A stretch of 64,000 bases of DNA from Patescibacteria group bacterium (GCA_023473585.1 JAMCYU010000004.1:66033-130032), one strand, 5' to 3'; positions 7,927 through 60,468 are shown, counted from the stretch's first letter. The notes: generated by a model from the sequence alone, not told the origin. Numbers and translations are program-made.

Positions 7927-10230
7927 ATGGAAGGAAAATTTATCCTGTGGTTTAATGAGGTAGGAAAGGATGATATTCCTTTGGTGGGCGGTAAGGGAGC
8001 TAACTTAGGAGAAATGGCTAAATTTGGTATTCCCGTTCCCGCAGGCTTTATCGTTACGGCCCAGGCCTATTTTTATTTTTTGGAGAAAGCAAATTTACGC
8101 ACGAAAATTAAGAATTATCTTTCTTCTTTAAACCTTAATGAACCCGACTCCCTGGAACAGGTCTCTTCTCATATTAAAAGACTGATTTTAACTTCTCCGG
8201 TGCCTAGGGATTTAGCGCAAGCGATCTCTGAAAATTACGCCAAACTGGGAACCTTTTTAAAACCGGCTTTAGTCGCGGTCCGTTCTTCGGCCACCGCCGA
8301 AGATTTGCCGACCGCCTCTTTTGCCGGTCAACAGGAAACCTTCTTAAATATCTCCGGCGATGCTTCGGTCGTGGAAAAAGTACGCCAGTCCTGGGCCTCT
8401 CTTTTTACTCCCCGGGCGATTTTTTATCGCGAAGAGCAAAAATTTGATCATTTTAAAGTCGGAATTGCGATCCCTATACAGAAAATGATTCAATCGGAAA
8501 CTTCCGGCATCATGTTTACGATTGATCCTCTCTCTTCGGATAAATCAAAAATTATTATCGAAGCGATTTATGGCCTAGGCGAAATGATCGTTCAGGGACA
8601 AGTTATTCCCGACCGCTACGAGATTTCTAAAAAAGACCTTAAAATTTTAAAAAAAGATATCTCGACACAAGATAAAATGCTTGTTGGGCAAAAACATCAG
8701 AATAAGCTTTTGGAAGTGCCTAAAAAAAATAGGAGTTTACAAAAAATAAAAGATCGGGAAATTACAGAACTGGGTGTTTTGGGCAAAAAAATTGAGCGTC
8801 ATTATTTTTTCCCTCAAGACATTGAATGGGCCATTGAAAACGGGAAGATTTATATTGTCCAAACAAGACCCGTAACCACGATGGCCAGTGTTGCCAGGGG
8901 TAAAGAAGAAGCTAAAGATATTAAATTAATTAATCCAAAATTAAAACCGATTTTTACGGGCGTTGGCGCCTCACCGGGTATTGCTTCAGGGCCGGTTAGG
9001 GAAATTCATTCGCCCAAAGAAATAAATCGGGTTATTTTAGGTGATGTTTTGGTGACGGAAATGACTAATCCTGACTTTGTTCCGGCGATGAAAAAAGCCG
9101 TGGCCATTGTTACCGATCAGGGAGGCAGAACCGCCCACGCGGCCATTGTCAGCCGGGAACTGGGTATTCCTTGTGTGGTCGGCGCAAAAATCGCCACGAA
9201 GCTTCTTAAAACCGGTCAGGTGGTCACGGTCAACGGTGAAACAGGGGAAGTCTTCAGGGGCGGAATTTTGCAAAGTCAAAAAATCGCCCATGAATTTAAA
9301 AAACAAGATCAAATCTTAGCAAAAAAACACGAGATCCCCATAAAAACCGCCACGAAGATTTATCTTAACTTGGCGGAGGCAGAAAAAGTCAAAGATTTGG
9401 CGAAAATGCCGGTTGAGGGCGTGGGTTTATTGAGAGCCGAATTTGTCATGGCGCAAATCGGCATTCATCCGAAGAAAATTATTCATGATCAAAAACAAAA
9501 AATGTTTATTGAGAAACTCGCTTCTTTCCTCGCCACTTTCTGCGAGGCGTTCAGTCCTCGTCCTGTCGTTTATCGAACTTCTGATTTTAAAACCAACGAA
9601 TATCGCAATCTTACGGGCGGTCAAGATTTTGAACCCGAAGAACAAAATCCCATGATCGGTTATCGCGGCGCCTATCGCTACCGATCTGACCCGGCGGTTT
9701 TAGAATTGGAACTTGAAGCGATCAAAGAAGTTCGCAAGAAAAAAGGCTTTACCAATTTATGGTTAATGCTGCCCTTTGTCCGAACTCCGCAAGAACTTTT
9801 GGAAGTCAAAAAGATTATCGCCAGCGCCGGCCTTCTTCGGTCGCCTTCCTTTAAACTGTGGCTGATGGTGGAAATTCCCGCCAACGTGATTTTGTTGGAT
9901 AAGTTTATCGAAATGGGCATTGACGGAGTTTCGATCGGTTCTAATGATTTAACGATGTTAACCTTAGGGGTTGACCGAGACAACGCCGAACTGGCCCAGG
10001 CTTTTAACGAGCAGGACCCGGCCGTTCTTTGGGAACTAGAAAAAATTATTAAAACCTGTCATCAATATAAAATAACCTCGTCCATTTGTGGTCAGGCGCC
10101 GTCTGATTACCCTTCCTTGGTGGAAAAATTAGTACACTGGGGAATAACCAGCGTCTCGGTAAACCCCGATGCCGTAGAAAGAACCAGAGAAACGATTTAT
10201 GAAGAGGAGAAAAAATTGTGCCAAAAATAA
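7927..10230 (+). CDS. ppsA: phosphoenolpyruvate synthase (pyruvate, water dikinase)
   Basis: N-terminus LWFNEVGKDDIPLVGGKGANLGEM and phosphohistidine domain GGRTAHAAIVSRELGIPCVVG. TATACT -10 lies 6 nt before the ATG. Confidence 0.85.
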   Translation: MEGKFILWFNEVGKDDIPLVGGKGANLGEMAKFGIPVPAGFIVTAQAYFYFLEKANLRTKIKNYLSSLNLNEPDSLEQVSSHIKRLILTSPVPRDLAQAISENYAKLGTFLKPALVAVRSSATAEDLPTASFAGQQETFLNISGDASVVEKVRQSWASLFTPRAIFYREEQKFDHFKVGIAIPIQKMIQSETSGIMFTIDPLSSDKSKIIIEAIYGLGEMIVQGQVIPDRYEISKKDLKILKKDISTQDKMLVGQKHQNKLLEVPKKNRSLQKIKDREITELGVLGKKIERHYFFPQDIEWAIENGKIYIVQTRPVTTMASVARGKEEAKDIKLINPKLKPIFTGVGASPGIASGPVREIHSPKEINRVILGDVLVTEMTNPDFVPAMKKAVAIVTDQGGRTAHAAIVSRELGIPCVVGAKIATKLLKTGQVVTVNGETGEVFRGGILQSQKIAHEFKKQDQILAKKHEIPIKTATKIYLNLAEAEKVKDLAKMPVEGVGLLRAEFVMAQIGIHPKKIIHDQKQKMFIEKLASFLATFCEAFSPRPVVYRTSDFKTNEYRNLTGGQDFEPEEQNPMIGYRGAYRYRSDPAVLELELEAIKEVRKKKGFTNLWLMLPFVRTPQELLEVKKIIASAGLLRSPSFKLWLMVEIPANVILLDKFIEMGIDGVSIGSNDLTMLTLGVDRDNAELAQAFNEQDPAVLWELEKIIKTCHQYKITSSICGQAPSDYPSLVEKLVHWGITSVSVNPDAVERTRETIYEEEKKLCQK

Positions 10231-39779: not shown

Positions 39780-40386
39780 TTTGTTCTTTTTTTGCTTCGC
39801 CGATGGTCGAAACTTCGCCGTGGCCGGGGTAGAGAATGGTTGCTTTGGGTAATTTAAATATTTTGTTTAAAGATTGATCCAGATCTTTTTTGGAGCTATA
39901 AGAAAAATCCGTGCGGCCCAAACCGTTGGCAAATAACGTATCACCGGAAAAAATAACCCCTTGACCCAAAAGACTGATCCCGCCTGGCGTATGGCCGGGC
40001 GTTTCCATAACTTTTAAAACCTCTTGCCCGAACTTAATTTTTTCTTTCTCTTTTAAAAAACGGTCAGCCGAAGGAGCCGGATCAACGCTAATGCCTAAAA
40101 AATATTGGGCGCTTTTTTGCGCCTGTTTTAATAAAAAGAGATCTTTTGCATGAATCAAAAAGGGGATTTGGTAGGCTAATTTAAGCTCCAAAGCCGCCAG
40201 GACATGATCAAAATGAGCGTGAGTTGCCAAAAGGGCCGTGGGTTTGAGCTTAAGGTCGGCAATTTTAGCCTCGATATAAGCGGCCGCCTCGCCCGGATCA
40301 ATAATCAAGGTTTCTTTGGTTTTTTCGTCCCAGACAAGATAACAATTCGTTGCCAACTGTCCAACGCTCAGTCTTTGCACCTTCAT
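39775..40386 (-). CDS. MBL-fold metallo-hydrolase (glyoxalase II-like)
   Basis: THAHFDH zinc motif; 203 aa. Confidence 0.7.
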   Translation of the reverse strand: MKVQRLSVGQLATNCYLVWDEKTKETLIIDPGEAAAYIEAKIADLKLKPTALLATHAHFDHVLAALELKLAYQIPFLIHAKDLFLLKQAQKSAQYFLGISVDPAPSADRFLKEKEKIKFGQEVLKVMETPGHTPGGISLLGQGVIFSGDTLFANGLGRTDFSYSSKKDLDQSLNKIFKLPKATILYPGHGEVSTIGEAKKEQI

Positions 40387-40465: not shown

Positions 40466-41059
40466 ATGAAAAAAGTGCTACTCGTAGTTCTTTGGTTTCC
40501 GCTCACCATGGCAACTTTAAGCGGCGCCCTCTTGACTCTTTATTTCTTCGATAATGTCAGGGCCGGAGATTTGCTTTTTGCTAAACAAGCTAAGGAGTTG
40601 GCTTTGAAAAATCAATACGAGTTTTATGCCGCCCTCCCTCAAGTCTTGGGCTCATTGACAACCGTCGTTGAGGCGGCTGACGCCCGGCCGGAATTGATTC
40701 GACAATATCTTACTAAATACAATTCGCCGCTCTTACCCTACGCTGATTTAATCGTCAAGTTATCTGATCAGTATAATTTGGATTTCCGTCTGATCGTTTC
40801 CATCGCTCAATGCGAATCAAATGTTTGTAAAAGAATACCGGAAGGATCCTATAATTGTTGGGGGTTTGAAAATGGCGCAACCCATTTTCAATCCTTCGAA
40901 CAGGCTTTGGAACAAGTCGCCAAAACTTTAAAAGAAGGTTACATCGATCAGGGATTAACTACTCCGGACTTAATAATGCCCAAATATGCTCCACCGTCAG
41001 TGGCCAAAGGCGGCCCCTGGGCCAAATGCGTTAACCAATTTATGGAAGAACTTAAATAA
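40466..41059 (+). CDS. secreted GH73-like glucosaminidase-domain protein (putative peptidoglycan hydrolase), paralog 1
   Basis: Signal peptide; IAQCESN..NCWGFENG resembles the glucosaminidase ESGWG...NN.FG core. Paralogous to 41291..41833. Confidence 0.4.
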   Translation: MKKVLLVVLWFPLTMATLSGALLTLYFFDNVRAGDLLFAKQAKELALKNQYEFYAALPQVLGSLTTVVEAADARPELIRQYLTKYNSPLLPYADLIVKLSDQYNLDFRLIVSIAQCESNVCKRIPEGSYNCWGFENGATHFQSFEQALEQVAKTLKEGYIDQGLTTPDLIMPKYAPPSVAKGGPWAKCVNQFMEELK

Positions 41060-41077
41060 AGATTTCCTCCCCGAAAC

Positions 41078-41106
41078 TTGACAAGCCTATAATATTATGA
41101 TATAAT
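41078..41106 (+). promoter_or_regulatory. consensus sigma70 promoter
   Basis: TTGACA, 17 nt spacer, TATAAT (perfect consensus). Confidence 0.5.
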
Positions 41107-41112
41107 CCCCGC

Positions 41113-41290
41113 CAGATCCTGAGGTACGGAGGTATTTCACTTCCTACTTTAGGATTTTTTTATGGGCTTGTTAATGAGCCGGTAGGCAAGTTTTTACAAG
41201 CCCAAATCCTGCCAAAGCGCCCCTCGGAGGCAAGGACATAAGACTTTGCGACGAGGCAAGCGGAGGCGGATAGGAAGAGAGGTCAAGCTT
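41113..41290 (+). promoter_or_regulatory. ~180-nt structured 5' leader of the second GH73-like gene
   Basis: Long hairpin GAUCCUGAGGUA...UACUUUAGGAU followed by U7 (41124-41160); 7-codon uORF MGLLMSR (41162-41185); 8-bp stem GGGCUUGU/ACAAGCCC; three GGCAAG repeats; SD GAAGAGAGG before the ATG. Confidence 0.3.
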
Positions 41291-41833
41291 ATGAAAAAAC
41301 AGATCTGGTTGGCAGTTTTCGTTTTAACTGCCCTAATGATTCTTATCTCTCCCTCCTTTGTTATGGCTTCGGAGGGTAAAGAAGCCGCCAGCTCGGCTGA
41401 TATCTTTGTGGGTCAAGCGCCAAATCCTAATGTTGATAGATTGCGCCGGTTTTTGGCCTATTACGATTCGCCTTTGGCAAACTATGCGCCGGTTTTTGTT
41501 GAAAAGGCTTCTCGGTATAACTTAGACTGGAAATTGATTCCGGCCATTACGGGTGTGGAATCGACCTTCGGCAAGGCCATTCCTTTTAACTCCTATAACG
41601 CCTATGGCTGGGCTAACGGGGAATACTCTTTTAAGTCCTGGGAAGAATCAATTGAGGTTGTTTCAAAAACCTTAAGAGAAAACTATGCCAATAGGGGTGC
41701 TGATACCGTTGAAAAAATAGCGCCGATTTATGCTCCTCCTTCCCAAACCTGGGCCGGCAAGGTTTTGTATTTTATGGACAAAATTGAAAATTTTGCTCCT
41801 AACAAAACGATTGCTTTGGAACTTTCACTATAA
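41291..41833 (+). CDS. secreted GH73-like glucosaminidase-domain protein, paralog 2
   Basis: Signal peptide MKKQIWLAVFVLTALMILIS; ITGVEST..NAYGWANG core; conserved YAPPS near the C-terminus shared with paralog 1. Confidence 0.4.
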   Translation: MKKQIWLAVFVLTALMILISPSFVMASEGKEAASSADIFVGQAPNPNVDRLRRFLAYYDSPLANYAPVFVEKASRYNLDWKLIPAITGVESTFGKAIPFNSYNAYGWANGEYSFKSWEESIEVVSKTLRENYANRGADTVEKIAPIYAPPSQTWAGKVLYFMDKIENFAPNKTIALELSL

Positions 41834-41851
41834 TATAATGGCGTAAACCAT

Positions 41852-41933
41852 GCCGCGATGGCGGAATTGGCATACGCATACGGCTTAGGACCGTATCCCG
41901 CAAGGGTTGGGGGTTCAAGTCCCTCTCGCGGCA
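41852..41933 (+). tRNA. tRNA-Leu (UAG)
   Basis: Class II; acceptor GCCGCGA/UCGCGGC, anticodon loop CUUAGGA; TATAAT upstream. Confidence 0.75.
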
Positions 41934-41943
41934 CTTGCTCTTT

Positions 41944-56902: not shown

Positions 56903-59554
56903 TTAAAGCGGGGACGGCGTCGGCGCCGGGGTGGGGACAGGGGTCGGCGTCGGCGCCGCCCAATCCCAGGGAACAAAAACACCAAATTTAATTTCCGCAT
57001 CAGAAGCGTTGCCTTTGGAATCCTGGGCTTTAATTTTAAGAGTGTGTGTTCCTTTAGCCATGTTTATTCTTTCGGAAAATTTATTGGTGGAAAGCGTCCG
57101 ATTGACTAAACCATCAATAATTATTTCCAGTTTGACAATTTCTCCAACCGCCGAATAAGCTTCGGTTTCAACCAAGACATCATTGTCGTTTATCTGCGAC
57201 CGATCGCCGGGACTCTTAATTTTGACAATGGCTCGATCAAGTTTATCCTGCGAAGTTTCTTTCGGGGGATGATATTTGCTGTCGGTATTTGAAGCTAACC
57301 AAGCGTCAATGCCCTCCTGCCAGCGATTTTTCCCGTCGGTTGAGACCGGGTCCTGTTCAGTTAAGACAATAAAGTCTTTCTCCTCGTATTCTCCCATGGC
57401 AATTTCACTTTGATTAGCTAATTTACCATTATTTTTGGAAATTTTAAGTTTTTGATAAATTGCGGCTGGCTGTGTCGGTTCGGTACCGGAGATAAAATAT
57501 TCACTTCTGGTCGGAAAACCCTCTTTAGGCAACCCTCCACCAAAAGCATCGATCGTTGAGGCAACAACATTTGCGGGAACGATAGGTGGCTCGTCCGGTT
57601 TATCTTTTAAAATAAAGCGCATAATTTTATTCCAAATTGGCGCGGCGCCGGTAACCCCGGAAGCCAAAGAAGGATGCATGGCCGAATTATCGTTATTGCC
57701 AACCCACACGCCAACCACAAAACTGGGAGTAAAACCAACAGTCCAATTGTCTTTTTTATCATCGGTCGTTCCGGTCTTGACCGAGACGGTTTTCCCCGGC
57801 ACAACCAACCAGGAACTTGGACCAAAAATTTCTTTTCTGGCTTCATTGTCTAAAAGAATATGAGAAATTAAAAAAGAGACTTCCGGTGACAAAACTTTTT
57901 GTCCGGAGGTCGGTTTCGTTTCGAAAAGAGTTTTACCGCGCGAATCCTGAACTTTAAGAATAGAGGTCGGTTCATGCCGAACGCCGCTTTGGCCAAAAAC
58001 GCCGAAAGCGCTGGTTAGATCTAAAAGCTTAACTTCGCCGCCACCAAGGGTTAAAGCCAAACCGAAACGGCTCAAGTTTTCATTCGTCGGCTGAAGCGTT
58101 GTCAACCCCATATCATAAGCGGTCACTAAAGCTTCTTTAACCCCGACCATCGCCAACATCTTAACGGCCGCAATGTTAATTGAATTAGCCAAAGCAAATC
58201 TGACCTGAACCGGACCTCTGAATTTCCCGTCATAATTTTTAGGAATATAGTCGGGCTTATTCTCGCCACCAGGGAAATGAGTTTCCGTATCCATTAAAAG
58301 CGTGGCCGGTGTGTATCCTTTCTGAAAAGCGGTCGCGTAAATAATCGGTTTAATCGCCGAGCCCGGCTGGCGCAATCCCTGGGTCACGACGTTAAATTTA
58401 AAACCAGAAGAATCCGTCGCATTATAGTCCTTAGAACCAACCATCGCCAAAATCTGACCGGTTTTAGGATCCAAAACCGCGGCGGCGCCGTTGGTGACCT
58501 TAAGACTTTTAAGTTTCCCAATCTCTTCCTTGACGATTTTTTCCGCCTCTTCCTGAATCTTCCAATCTAGTGTCGTTGTGACTTTAAGACCGCCCTGTTC
58601 GATCATCTTCTCGCCGAATTGGGCAATCAATTTTTCCTTAACGTACATGACAAAATGAGGCGCCCGAAAATTGGTATCGGTTTCAGAAAACTTAACGTTA
58701 GTAATGTCTTTTTTGGCCTGTTCTTCCTGATCTTTTGAGATATAACCGTCCTCACGCATTCTTCGCAAAACCTGTCCGGTCCGCCAAATATAGGCCTTAG
58801 GATCCGAACCGAAAAGGGGAGAGTATTTGGTCGGCGCGTTCGGCAGTCCGGCCAAAATGACCGACTCTAAAAAACTTAAATCTTTGGTGTGTTTGCCAAA
58901 ATAGGTTTGGGAGGCTGTCTCGACCCCCCAAGCCGTCCCGCCATAGGGAGCCTCGTTTAAATACATCTGCAAAATCTCGTCTTTGGAATATTTTCTTTCA
59001 ATCTGAATCGCCAAAATAAACTCTTTAATTTTCCGAGGCAAGGTCCGTTCGCTTGTTAACAAGACGTTTTTCACCAGCTGTTGAGTTAAGGTCGAACCGC
59101 CCTGAAGGTTTCTAAAAACAAAGATGTTAACCAAGGCCCTCCCCATACCGCTAAAGGAAAAACCCTGATGTTTATAAAATTCTTTATCCTCAATGGCCAC
59201 GGTCGCCTGACGCAAAGATTGGGGCATATCGGCAAAAGAAACCGGAACCCGATTTTGATCCCCGTAAATGTCGTATAAAACCTCGCCGTTTTTGTCGGTA
59301 ATAACCGTTGATAAACCTTCAACCCGATGAACCTTATCCGGACGGGGCAAATCTTTACTGTACCAGGCAAAAAGGAAAACCACGAAAAAAACTAAAGCCA
59401 AACTTCCCAAAAGAACCAGGGTGCTTAACTGCGACCAGCGCTTGATCCGTTCCAGTCTTGAAGAAGAACCGAAATGGGAGCGTTTCCAGCGTTTTTCCTG
59501 AAAAACATCAAGCATATCTTCACTTGGAGAAATTTTGGTTTCGATTTTCTCCAT
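56903..59554 (-). CDS. class A penicillin-binding protein (PBP1A-like) with C-terminal Ig-like/Pro-Thr-rich extension
   Basis: GT51 motifs EDKEFYKHQGF and GGSTLTQQ; transpeptidase SAIKP, SIN, KTGTT; C-terminal TPTPVPTPAPTPSP. Confidence 0.85.
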   Translation of the reverse strand: MEKIETKISPSEDMLDVFQEKRWKRSHFGSSSRLERIKRWSQLSTLVLLGSLALVFFVVFLFAWYSKDLPRPDKVHRVEGLSTVITDKNGEVLYDIYGDQNRVPVSFADMPQSLRQATVAIEDKEFYKHQGFSFSGMGRALVNIFVFRNLQGGSTLTQQLVKNVLLTSERTLPRKIKEFILAIQIERKYSKDEILQMYLNEAPYGGTAWGVETASQTYFGKHTKDLSFLESVILAGLPNAPTKYSPLFGSDPKAYIWRTGQVLRRMREDGYISKDQEEQAKKDITNVKFSETDTNFRAPHFVMYVKEKLIAQFGEKMIEQGGLKVTTTLDWKIQEEAEKIVKEEIGKLKSLKVTNGAAAVLDPKTGQILAMVGSKDYNATDSSGFKFNVVTQGLRQPGSAIKPIIYATAFQKGYTPATLLMDTETHFPGGENKPDYIPKNYDGKFRGPVQVRFALANSINIAAVKMLAMVGVKEALVTAYDMGLTTLQPTNENLSRFGLALTLGGGEVKLLDLTSAFGVFGQSGVRHEPTSILKVQDSRGKTLFETKPTSGQKVLSPEVSFLISHILLDNEARKEIFGPSSWLVVPGKTVSVKTGTTDDKKDNWTVGFTPSFVVGVWVGNNDNSAMHPSLASGVTGAAPIWNKIMRFILKDKPDEPPIVPANVVASTIDAFGGGLPKEGFPTRSEYFISGTEPTQPAAIYQKLKISKNNGKLANQSEIAMGEYEEKDFIVLTEQDPVSTDGKNRWQEGIDAWLASNTDSKYHPPKETSQDKLDRAIVKIKSPGDRSQINDNDVLVETEAYSAVGEIVKLEIIIDGLVNRTLSTNKFSERINMAKGTHTLKIKAQDSKGNASDAEIKFGVFVPWDWAAPTPTPVPTPAPTPSPL

Positions 59555-59583: not shown

Positions 59584-59612
59584 TTGACAAGTCAAAAAGC
59601 AATCGGTATAAT
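59584..59612 (+). promoter_or_regulatory. consensus sigma70 promoter
   Basis: TTGACA, 17 nt spacer, TATAAT. Confidence 0.5.
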
Positions 59613-59619
59613 TAAACCC

Positions 59620-59703
59620 ATGTTGTCAACCACCCAAACTCTTTTTTGGTTTTATTATACCTTCCAAAAAGGGAGGTTGGTTGACGTGGTTATAGAACAC
59701 TAA
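59620..59703 (+). CDS. putative leaderless leader peptide (27 aa, aromatic-rich) of a racemase-tyrS attenuator
   Basis: ATG 7 nt after the -10. Encodes MLSTTQTLFWFYYTFQKGRLVDVVIEH. Codons 17-22 form the hairpin ACCUUCC-AAAAA-GGGAGG. Confidence 0.35.
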   Translation: MLSTTQTLFWFYYTFQKGRLVDVVIEH

Positions 59704-59728
59704 ACATTAATCATTAAATTAAAACCAG

Positions 59729-59752
59729 CCTCCCAAAAAGGGAGGTTTTTTT
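59729..59752 (+). terminator. intrinsic terminator (attenuator) upstream of the racemase gene
   Basis: CCUCCC-AAAAA-GGGAGG followed by UUUUUUU. The 5' arm can alternatively pair with GGGAGG at 59671-59676. Confidence 0.6.
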
Positions 59753-59769
59753 GTGGAAAAAGGAGAATT

Positions 59770-60468
59770 ATGAAAACAGCTGGAATTATCGGTGGTTTTG
59801 GACCGGAGACAACGACTAAGTTTCAACTAGAAATAGTTGAGATTTTTCGTGCTTTAAAGATCAAAGAAAGACCAGCTCTTCTAATTTGGCAAACACCTAT
59901 CCCCGTAAAAATTGAACAAAGAATGATTCTTCAGGGCCAGGGAATCTCAAAATTTTTACCTTTTTTAATTGACGGGGCTCAAAAATTAGAAAATGGTGGG
60001 GCTGATTTTTTGGTTCTACCGTGCAATACGTTGCACATCTTAATTGATGACTTACGGAAATCAATTAATCTTCCGCTTATAAACCTTATTGAAGAAACGG
60101 CCAAAGACCTGGTTCGCAAAAAAATTAAAAGCATCGGGATCCTTGGAAGCCAAGAAACAATCAAAAGCCGTCTGCATCAGCAATTATTATCTAGAAAAGG
60201 AATCATTCCCATCTTGCCAAACGAAAACGAACAAAAGTTAATTAATAAAGTCATTAGCCAAATCCTGACTAATAAAAACTTAAGCGAAACCGAAAAGACC
60301 TTAAGAAGAGTAGTTAAAAACCTAGAGGCTAGGGGAACGAAAAACATTCTCCTGGCCTGCACCGATTTACAACTTGTTTTCCCCAAAATAAAAGGCATTG
60401 AAATCCACGATACATTGTCGATTTTAGCCCAAGCAACCGCAAGAGAAATTCTTAAAAAGAAGCTTTAA
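59770..60468 (+). CDS. aspartate/glutamate racemase family protein (aspartate racemase-like)
   Basis: 232 aa with the two catalytic Cys motifs LPCNTLH and LACTDL. SD AAAAAGGAG. Confidence 0.7.
   Translation: MKTAGIIGGFGPETTTKFQLEIVEIFRALKIKERPALLIWQTPIPVKIEQRMILQGQGISKFLPFLIDGAQKLENGGADFLVLPCNTLHILIDDLRKSINLPLINLIEETAKDLVRKKIKSIGILGSQETIKSRLHQQLLSRKGIIPILPNENEQKLINKVISQILTNKNLSETEKTLRRVVKNLEARGTKNILLACTDLQLVFPKIKGIEIHDTLSILAQATAREILKKKL

Follow-up and report, generated by a model that had tools for sequence, protein, structure and literature searches.

What kind of element is the structured leader that separates a perfect-consensus promoter from a cell-wall hydrolase-like gene in a Patescibacteria group bacterium? 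We analysed a stretch of 64,000 nucleotides (nt) from this organism (GCA_023473585.1, JAMCYU010000004.1:66033-130032; hereafter the window), in which a sigma-70-type promoter (41078-41106, + strand) stands ahead of a long leader and a gene for a GH73/glucosaminidase-like secreted protein of 180 amino acids (41291-41833, +). An earlier note, made from the sequence alone, had suggested that the leader might be a riboswitch or an attenuator. We find that its conserved and informative part, overlooked in that note, is the promoter together with the first hairpin of the transcript, and that both are common to Microgenomates bacteria. This 44-nt 5'-terminal hairpin, H1 (41114-41157, +), has a predicted minimum free energy (MFE) of ~-22 kcal/mol and is abutted by a U7 tract (41155-41161, +). 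The element is a new conserved leader or attenuator motif, for which we found neither an Rfam family nor a published description.

Conservation of the promoter and first hairpin

The segment 41074-41166, which spans promoter, H1 and U-tract, shows 72-79% DNA identity among relatives, upstream of proteins that are only ~50% identical. We assembled a gene-anchored set of 87 loci, of which 80 encode relatives of the protein (one genome per species) and seven are the closest metagenomic homologs. In 86 of these 87 loci, the unit of promoter, H1 and U-tract occurs once, on the same strand, 5' of the orthologous GH73-like gene. The lineages that carry promoter and H1 include Woese-, Gottesman-, Shapiro- and Levybacteria. 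Comparing orthologous leaders, as the earlier note had advised, thus uncovered a conserved structure supported by covariation. The single gene-anchored locus without H1 (L069:2650-3000) keeps a TTGACA-17-TATAAT promoter followed by a different short hairpin leader (UAGGCUAAUAGCCUA), and tandem paralogs are present there as well. Many of the records used, L003, L004, L006 and L010 among them, are titled 'uncultured Gammaproteobacteria', others Nevskiaceae or Alphaproteobacteria; judging by their gene content and neighbouring tRNA arrays, these look like mislabelled Patescibacteria bins.

Promoters were compared across 176 distinct related loci, and leader anatomy in 125 distinct leaders of a type A and in 46 of a type B. 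Type-A leaders, to which the window belongs, read AGAUCCURAGGU ... ACUUUAGGAU, then U5-9, then AUGG. Type-B leaders, found in Woesebacteria, read ACGUUCYGAGGC ... GCGUYRGRAU and continue through an AU-rich linker into a GC-rich hairpin with a U-run.

H1 consists of a lower stem, AGAUCCUGAGGU/ACUUUAGGAUU, capped by a variable upper stem-loop. A uniform scan of both strands ranked it as the most stable hairpin-plus-U-tract in the window (-21.7 vs -18.5 kcal/mol for the next). The 188-nt leader as a whole is also unusually stable, with an MFE of -72.9 kcal/mol (z = -6.1 against dinucleotide shuffles; 0/200 shuffles as stable), and in the MFE structure of the window H1 and two further hairpins, H2 and H3, fold independently of one another. 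That the structure exceeds chance is shown most decisively by its preservation in relatives. H1 forms in 86 of 88 sequences folded. Across an alignment of 71 sequences, 87% of the lower-stem cells pair and 7 of 12 pairs show double-sided changes; none of 500 shuffles equalled the observed covariation score, and sliding the 3' partners by 1-3 columns made the signal collapse. One pair of the stem is never Watson-Crick, being always G.U in type A and G.G in type B, and the GAGG of the 5' arm is conserved in sequence. The upper stem, with 102 distinct sequences at 39% pairwise identity, still folds above shuffles (median z = -2.0).

A covariance model of H1 built from the same alignment scored 42.9 bits at the locus, against 12.6 bits for the next best match in the window. 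The model found exactly one + strand match in 86 of the 87 gene-anchored loci (29.7-59.7 bits) and no further match in the ~500 kb of locus sequence. Because the stem contains many G.U pairs, and because antisense matches are weak or absent, we assign the structure to the + strand RNA. A possible antisense promoter within H1, a 9/12 minus-strand match, was discarded, as its -35 falls in the non-conserved H2.

The promoter itself comprises a -35 TTGACA (41078-41083, +), a 17-nt spacer and a -10 TATAAT (41101-41106, +), just as the earlier note had reported, plus an extended -10 TG (41098-41099, +). It scored 12/12 in our scan, and perfect TTGACA-N16-18-TATAAT matches occur only three times in the window with both strands scanned, all on the + strand. 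The -35 is a perfect TTGACA in 157 of the 176 distinct loci, whose consensus is cTTGACAa.cctata....T.TG.TATA.T, and TG precedes the -10 across them. In 133 of the 176, the end of the -10 lies 6-7 nt from the first base of H1, so that the spacing between promoter and hairpin is fixed and transcription probably begins at the foot of H1. By its distance from the -10, the predicted transcription start in the window is 41113-41114 (+), 7-8 nt beyond the -10 compared with mostly 6-7 nt in relatives, and in most loci H1 starts 0-2 nt from the predicted 5' end. The long hairpin and U7 described in the earlier note are therefore real but were misplaced there at ~45 nt from the transcription start: the hairpin begins at the predicted start, 41113/41114, and it is the end of the U-tract that corresponds to ~+48 of the predicted transcript.

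Within the promoter spacer lies a further conserved feature, a box CCTATAAT (41086-41093, +) that appears as CCTATAAT/CCTATAGT at the same position in ~170 related loci. It is not a generic promoter signature, since TTGACANNCCTATART occurs once in the window and is missing from the other two perfect promoters. The box is also a second -10-like hexamer, 12-13 nt 5' of the real -10; it might serve as an operator or give the polymerase an additional contact.

The association with the hydrolase gene also appears when the gene is left out of the search. A gene-blind scan of metagenome contigs with the type-A H1 pattern returned at least 120 loci, and the hydrolase family profile matched directly downstream in 103 of the 120 matches listed. 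Among the other 17, nine have at most 192 nt of downstream sequence, two are long leaders cut off by the end of the contig, two are chance matches inside open reading frames (ORFs) that have no promoter, and four are orphans that keep promoter and H1. Taken together, a promoter and an RNA hairpin are jointly conserved across at least four candidate phyla of Microgenomates, before one cell-wall enzyme gene, in more than 170 distinct examples. These data provide a defined promoter consensus and a probable transcription start for Microgenomates bacteria, and a candidate cis-regulatory RNA family for RNA family databases and annotation.

The start codon beyond the U-tract and a putative attenuator

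H1 has the make-up of an intrinsic terminator, namely a stable stem-loop (~-22 kcal/mol) followed by U7 on the transcribed strand. A U run of 5-9 nt (mode 7) is present in 124 of the 125 distinct type-A leaders, and H1 is terminator-like in 119 of them. In type B, a separate canonical terminator, the GC-rich hairpin with its U-run, lies between H1 and the start codon in 40 of 46 leaders. The common denominator is thus a promoter-proximal terminator-like element before a conserved gene. Attenuator is to that extent a fair label for this terminator-like, conserved first hairpin; the leader-peptide form of attenuation is not supported, as the peptide encoded after the hairpin is not conserved.

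That peptide, MGLLMSR, is the product of a 7-codon upstream ORF (uORF; 41162-41185, +) which runs from the AUG at 41162 to a UAG at 41183-41185, as the earlier note had it. Across the 125 distinct type-A leaders, the codon after the U-run is ATG in 69, TTG in 42 and GTG in six, and eight have no start codon at the site. The AUG after the U-tract is the start of the hydrolase gene itself in 25 of the 125 and shares the reading frame of the gene in another 14; at many metagenome loci, the match to the family profile begins with profile position 1, only 2 nt past the motif. Elsewhere the site opens uORFs of 1-46 codons (16 of them of only two codons) that share no common peptide; the two closest relatives have a 19-codon and a 2-codon uORF in place of MGLLMSR. 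An AGGA in the 3' arm of H1 (41151-41154, +) stands 7 nt before the AUG, with the U7 tract also serving as the spacer between them, and this AGGA is conserved 7-8 nt 5' of the start position in relatives. Since the start position and the AGGA upstream of it are conserved and the peptide is not, the ancestral order was most likely H1, U-tract, gene start. AUG 41162 would then most likely be the ancestral start-codon position of the hydrolase gene, the start in the window lineage having moved 129 nt downstream.

We accordingly rejected a conserved leader peptide. The uORF is also in the wrong place for one, as it lies downstream of the terminator-like hairpin and neither upstream of it nor across it. 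Translational coupling between uORF and gene is not general either, since the stop-to-start distance, 105 nt in the window, varies between 1 and 214 nt among leaders.

Our favoured reading, which we hold with moderate confidence, is that the window carries one instance of a 5' leader that Microgenomates have conserved before their GH73-like hydrolase gene, and that this leader would limit or gate expression through attenuation combined with burial of the ancestral ribosome-binding site. A consensus sigma-70-type promoter with an extended -10 would start transcription at the foot of H1, and H1 with U7 would act as an intrinsic-terminator-like attenuator at ~+1 to +48. Most transcripts from this strong promoter would end at the U-tract as a ~48-nt RNA, and the fraction that reads through would become hydrolase mRNA with a protective 5' hairpin. 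Because the AUG is the gene start in 25 of the 125 leaders and in frame in 14 more, H1, with AGGA in its 3' arm 7 nt before that AUG, may also bury the ancestral translation-initiation region. In the window, the gene start lies 129 nt further on, behind H2 and H3, with an exposed Shine-Dalgarno (SD) sequence of its own. A partner that recognises the lower stem, which we propose because the sequence of that stem is conserved, could set the level of read-through. Together, the two roles would restrain or gate the output of a potentially lytic enzyme whose promoter is very strong.

Several observations weigh against this reading. The four orphan loci of the gene-blind scan (L138, L143, L170 and L200) have promoter and H1 intact and the downstream hydrolase-like gene gone. 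L138, L143 and L170 retain the upstream paralog of the hydrolase gene, none being detected on the short L200 contig, and all four have a tRNA-Leu(UAG) next to H1, inverted relative to H1 in L143; they represent either recent gene loss or a role of H1 that is independent of the gene. A plain terminator or occluding hairpin, moreover, leaves the sequence conservation of the 5'-arm GAGG and of the G.U/G.G pair unexplained. The type-B H1 is a poor terminator and does not adjoin the start codon, yet it is conserved, and the common role of H1 must therefore be something else as well. Weak SD use in this genome, where SD-like 4-mers upstream of starts in the window are at background frequency (16% vs 15%), makes the AGGA uncertain as an SD. 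When the 5' arm of H1 was forced to be unpaired in silico in the type-B leaders examined, the downstream terminator was unchanged, so that a classical switch is not borne out. Finally, the transcription start, termination at the U-tract, read-through and any regulation are predictions from sequence.

The closest known class is that of promoter-proximal intrinsic terminators and 5'-leader attenuators of the Gram-positive type, for which a premature terminator analysis served as comparison (PMC2965389). The order of promoter, leader, stem-loop with U-tract, and gene is the same, and as in that class the element is tied to one gene family. The differences are that the hairpin starts at +1, that stem sequence and promoter are conserved across a class-level lineage, and that no antiterminator alternative was found. 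We found no antiterminator pairing between H1 and H2, and no mutually exclusive terminator/antiterminator or SD/anti-SD folds in the window or in the type-B leaders examined. If the conserved stem binds a factor or ligand, the element would be a new regulatory class; failing that, it still adds a new and well-documented motif to the known attenuators and leaders. On the favoured reading, it would offer a concrete case of a potentially lytic enzyme held in check.

Downstream extensions and alternative readings

Directly after the U-tract, the window folds into H2 (41163-41204, +; MFE), whose 5' strand includes the start region of the uORF. Its 8-bp stem pairs GGGCUUGU (41164-41171, +) with ACAAGCCC (41196-41203, +) around a 24-nt loop that contains a small inner hairpin; stem and loop are as the earlier note had described them. 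A hairpin of at least 5 bp starting no more than 5 nt from the U-tract is present in 53 of the 71 type-A leaders with room for one. Its sequence is not conserved, and the closest relatives, L081 and L082, bear a different H2.

H3 (41206-41271, +) is a long irregular hairpin made of P1, AUCC(U)GCC/GGCGGAU, an AGCG/AGCG mini-helix, P2 and P3. It is common to the window and L082, L085-87, L077, L078, L164, L185, L075, L199 and L193. Ten related-locus sequences each fold into the same succession of P1, AGCG/AGCG, P2 and P3, with double changes in 8 of 10 predicted pairs of P2 and P3 and with junction nucleotides conserved as AGCG on both strands. By sequence profile, rather than covariance model, H3 is found in 10 distinct related loci of ~200 (12 entries; L085-L087 identical), and MAFFT aligned P1 inconsistently. 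It is absent from L081, whose protein is 90% identical, and from L083/84. We rejected H3 as a widespread domain, as the profile matched its ten seeds, two identical copies and one spurious sequence. H2-H3 is no repeat or mobile element either: BLAST and nhmmer searches of the window and all loci matched only itself and the closest relatives.

Three GGCAAG copies (41185, 41229 and 41255) are present, as the earlier note had seen, the last two being strands of H3. Neither these copies nor the GGA motifs noted with them amount to a repeated binding motif; they are strands of the lineage-restricted H2 and H3. The leader thus consists of a conserved core and of extensions peculiar to single lineages, H2 and H3 being such add-on hairpins; in other lineages we see long hairpins of another kind, or CU-rich strands that base-pair with the region around the SD. 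In the window, the SD that the earlier note placed before the GH73-like gene is an SD-like GAGAGG at 41277-41282 (+), 8 nt before the ATG at 41291-41293, and is unpaired in the MFE structure.

Could the conserved unit be a gene in its own right? A stand-alone small RNA, in which promoter, H1 and terminator yield an abundant ~48-nt trans-acting RNA and the hydrolase rides on read-through, is an outside possibility that we consider unlikely; in Woesebacteria such an RNA would be ~95 nt long, with H2 as its terminator. The unit has its own promoter and its own terminator, the type-B succession of hairpin, AU-rich linker and GC-rich terminator suits a small RNA, and the sequence-conserved lower stem suggests a specific partner. 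Retention of promoter and H1 at the four orphan loci despite loss of the gene points the same way; however, at least three of the four keep the upstream paralog, so that H1 may persist there as the terminator of that gene. Among the matches listed, moreover, the motif lies almost only directly 5' of the hydrolase family where downstream sequence suffices. In 25 of the 125 type-A leaders the gene starts within a few nt of the U-tract, which leaves no room for another promoter, and H1 must therefore act in cis there. A small RNA would also be one without a known trans target.

A second group of alternatives takes the conserved nucleotides of H1 as a site of recognition. We propose, tentatively and as an unlikely case, that H1 is the recognition element of a new Microgenomates regulatory system, either as a terminator-embedded aptamer or as a loading site for a factor or RNA polymerase that then passes the U-tract and the terminators of Woesebacteria. 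If so, hydrolase expression would be coupled to a cell-envelope or growth signal in a setting of mRNAs that often look leaderless. The broader version, in which either H1 or H2-H3 is a new sensor, whether an HMP-PP/thiS-like aptamer embedded in the terminator or a LoaP- or put-like hairpin recognised by a factor for terminator read-through, we find rather doubtful.

What speaks for a sensor is the presence of conserved nucleotides inside a terminator-like stem with one invariably non-Watson-Crick pair, together with the conserved AGCG junctions and covarying stems of H3 and the rarity in this genome of a strong promoter with a long leader. In woesebacterial leaders, in addition, one to three strong terminators separate H1 from a start codon that follows 10-25 nt on, and no antiterminator pairing was found; such an arrangement would silence the conserved gene unless termination is overcome. 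On the other side, our analysis turned up neither a ligand nor a factor nor an alternative fold, the predicted transcript offers no stretch 5' of H1 from which a second conformation could be built, and the leaders searched show no Rfam similarity. H2 and H3 come and go among close relatives (L081 and L083/84 being without H3), which is unusual for an essential aptamer. As for the nucleotides that an aptamer would expose, the H1 stem covaries but its conserved positions are paired, and the conserved H3 junctions are confined to 10 distinct loci. At the Woesebacteria-type loci L030, L058, L061, L027 and L020, two or three strong hairpins stand in series between H1 and a start 10-25 nt on, and some of these serial hairpins are flanked by an A-run and a U-run, like bidirectional terminators.

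Known systems offer partial parallels to such recognition. The put RNA of phage HK022 is a hairpin that nucleates processive antitermination. In the LoaP system, leader hairpins nucleate processive antitermination (PMC12691694). H1 resembles LoaP and put hairpins in being a conserved early hairpin with at least one intrinsic terminator between it and envelope-related genes, and in needing no competing structure; it differs in that no cognate factor was identified for H1 and in that the type-A hairpin itself carries the U-tract. The HMP-PP riboswitch (thiS motif) is a terminator-embedded aptamer (PMC6478431), and the likeness lies in a very small element with conserved nucleotides inside an intrinsic terminator stem. 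Unlike it, H1 has no evident alternative aptamer fold or ligand and no sequence similarity by Rfam match, and the associated gene is a hydrolase rather than a biosynthetic gene that would indicate the ligand.

Simple protection of the mRNA is less probable still. The ompA hp1 stem-loop is a 5'-terminal stabiliser, and FourU and ROSE thermometers are hairpins that occlude the SD. That H1 is purely a 5' stabiliser of the ompA kind, which shields a highly expressed envelope-protein mRNA from 5'-end-dependent RNases and uses the U-tract as a mere spacer, strikes us as very unlikely, even though H1 starts within 2 nt of the predicted 5' end in most loci, the promoter is strong and nothing constrains the sequence of the upper stem. 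In 124 of the 125 type-A leaders the stem runs straight into the U-tract, even where the gene starts at a distance of over 100 nt; canonical terminators are present in addition in type B, and protection needs no conservation of lower-stem sequence. H1 shares with ompA hp1 and the thermometers a position at the extreme 5' end and a paired, purine-rich, SD-like tract 7-8 nt before an AUG. Unlike these, it is followed by a U-tract, is conserved in sequence over a very wide phylogenetic range and, in Woesebacteria, is not beside the start codon; the Rfam thermometer families gave no match to the leader of the window.

It is highly unlikely that H1 is only the terminator of the upstream paralog, with the promoter match incidental. 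The paralog does stop 55 nt before H1, and orphan loci do keep both paralog and H1, but a promoter with fixed spacing to H1 is conserved in the 176 distinct loci, and many loci have tRNAs or opposite-strand genes upstream, with nothing to terminate. As a function additional to the attenuation that we favour, H1 could also terminate the paralog transcript.

A known riboswitch (c-di-AMP/ydaO or other) or MGLLMSR leader-peptide attenuation, which only the general setting brings to mind, with structured RNA ahead of a gene for a cell-wall hydrolase and a short ORF beyond the hairpin, is scarcely credible given chance-level Rfam matches and uORFs with no shared peptide. At gathering score, Rfam 15 found only tRNAs in the whole window. 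At E<=10, the interval 40950-41450 gave four chance-level matches, all on the minus strand and with a maximum of 16.7 bits, far below gathering scores; a Woesebacteria leader and a long Gottesmanbacteria-type leader likewise gave chance-level matches only (maximum 19.7 bits, in L060). The c-di-AMP/ydaO-type riboswitch put forward in the earlier note thus fell away, as neither RF00379 nor any other riboswitch family matched at any threshold tried. All that the leader shares with the ydaO-yuaA riboswitch is its context before a cell-wall hydrolase gene, size and architecture being unrelated. Full-text literature searches found no description of the element, and candidate papers did not mention it.

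Two likenesses were also set aside. The H1 3' arm contains UUAGGA, identical to the tRNA-Leu(UAG) anticodon loop, and CUA/CUG stands in the 5' arm, as in a T-box or anticodon mimic; the match is lost in type-B leaders, where the positions merely covary. The likeness of UCCGAGG to the Ro-binding stem of Y RNAs is a short one without Rfam support.

Neighbouring genes and genome context

The earlier note's GH73-like label for the downstream protein holds as a distant relationship. A profile of 40 homologs matches 8yxk, a cell wall hydrolase from a phage, with an E-value of 1e-6 and glucosaminidases of the LytB type with one of 5e-4, while Pfam PF01832 itself scores below its cut-off (21.1 bits, E 5e-4; cut-off 30.2). 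By these profile comparisons, the protein is classed as a distant GH73/glucosaminidase relative rather than a scored PF01832 member. Its 1091 homologs come, by named source, from Gottesmanbacteria, Woesebacteria and Microgenomates, save one record labelled Marinimicrobia. The label of paralog in the earlier note holds as well: upstream lies a gene for a protein (197 amino acids, 40466-41059, +) that is 40% identical to the downstream one; L081 and L083-L087 have the same tandem arrangement.

On the other side of the hydrolase gene stands a tRNA-Leu(UAG) (41852-41934, +) with its own -10 TATAAT (41834-41839, +). At all 60 loci tested, the tRNA follows the hydrolase-like gene on the same strand, as a rule at a distance of ~100 nt or less. 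In 41 of 53 loci, a -10-like box precedes the tRNA by 4-20 nt (mostly 8-11); often the box is TGATATAAT or GGTATAAT, inside the gene or just past its 3' end. Because the tRNA promoter overlaps the end of the gene, the two are probably locked together across Microgenomates. We rejected the idea that the strong promoter of the leader serves the tRNA, whose own -10-like box means that co-transcription from the leader promoter is not required.

The Candidate Phyla Radiation consists of uncultured organisms, and for that reason its gene regulation has hardly been studied. Of 45 long ORFs in the window, 16 have a -10-like hexamer that ends 5-9 nt before the ATG, the background rate being 5-6%; examples are at 7927, 19574, 48814, 49701 and 61856 (+) and at 40386 and 39155 (-). 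Judged by these promoter positions, most mRNAs of the genome would have little or no leader, and since many mRNAs of the window look leaderless, a structured leader of 177 nt that includes an SD is an exception in it.

A second perfect TTGACA-17-TATAAT with a ~155-nt leader (59584-59775, +) precedes an Asp/Glu racemase gene (59770-60468), probably a glutamate racemase and thus another peptidoglycan gene, which is divergent from a class-A penicillin-binding protein gene (56903-59554). This leader had no Rfam match. It contains the near-identical hairpins CCUUCC-AAAAA-GGGAGG and CCUCCC-AAAAA-GGGAGG followed by U7; the first hairpin can also pair through its 3' arm with the 5' arm of the other, in a terminator/antiterminator-like manner. 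A uORF of six codons starts at a GUG after the U7, and its stop codon shares nucleotides with the racemase AUG (AUGA). From its predicted pairings, the racemase leader looks like a classical attenuator.

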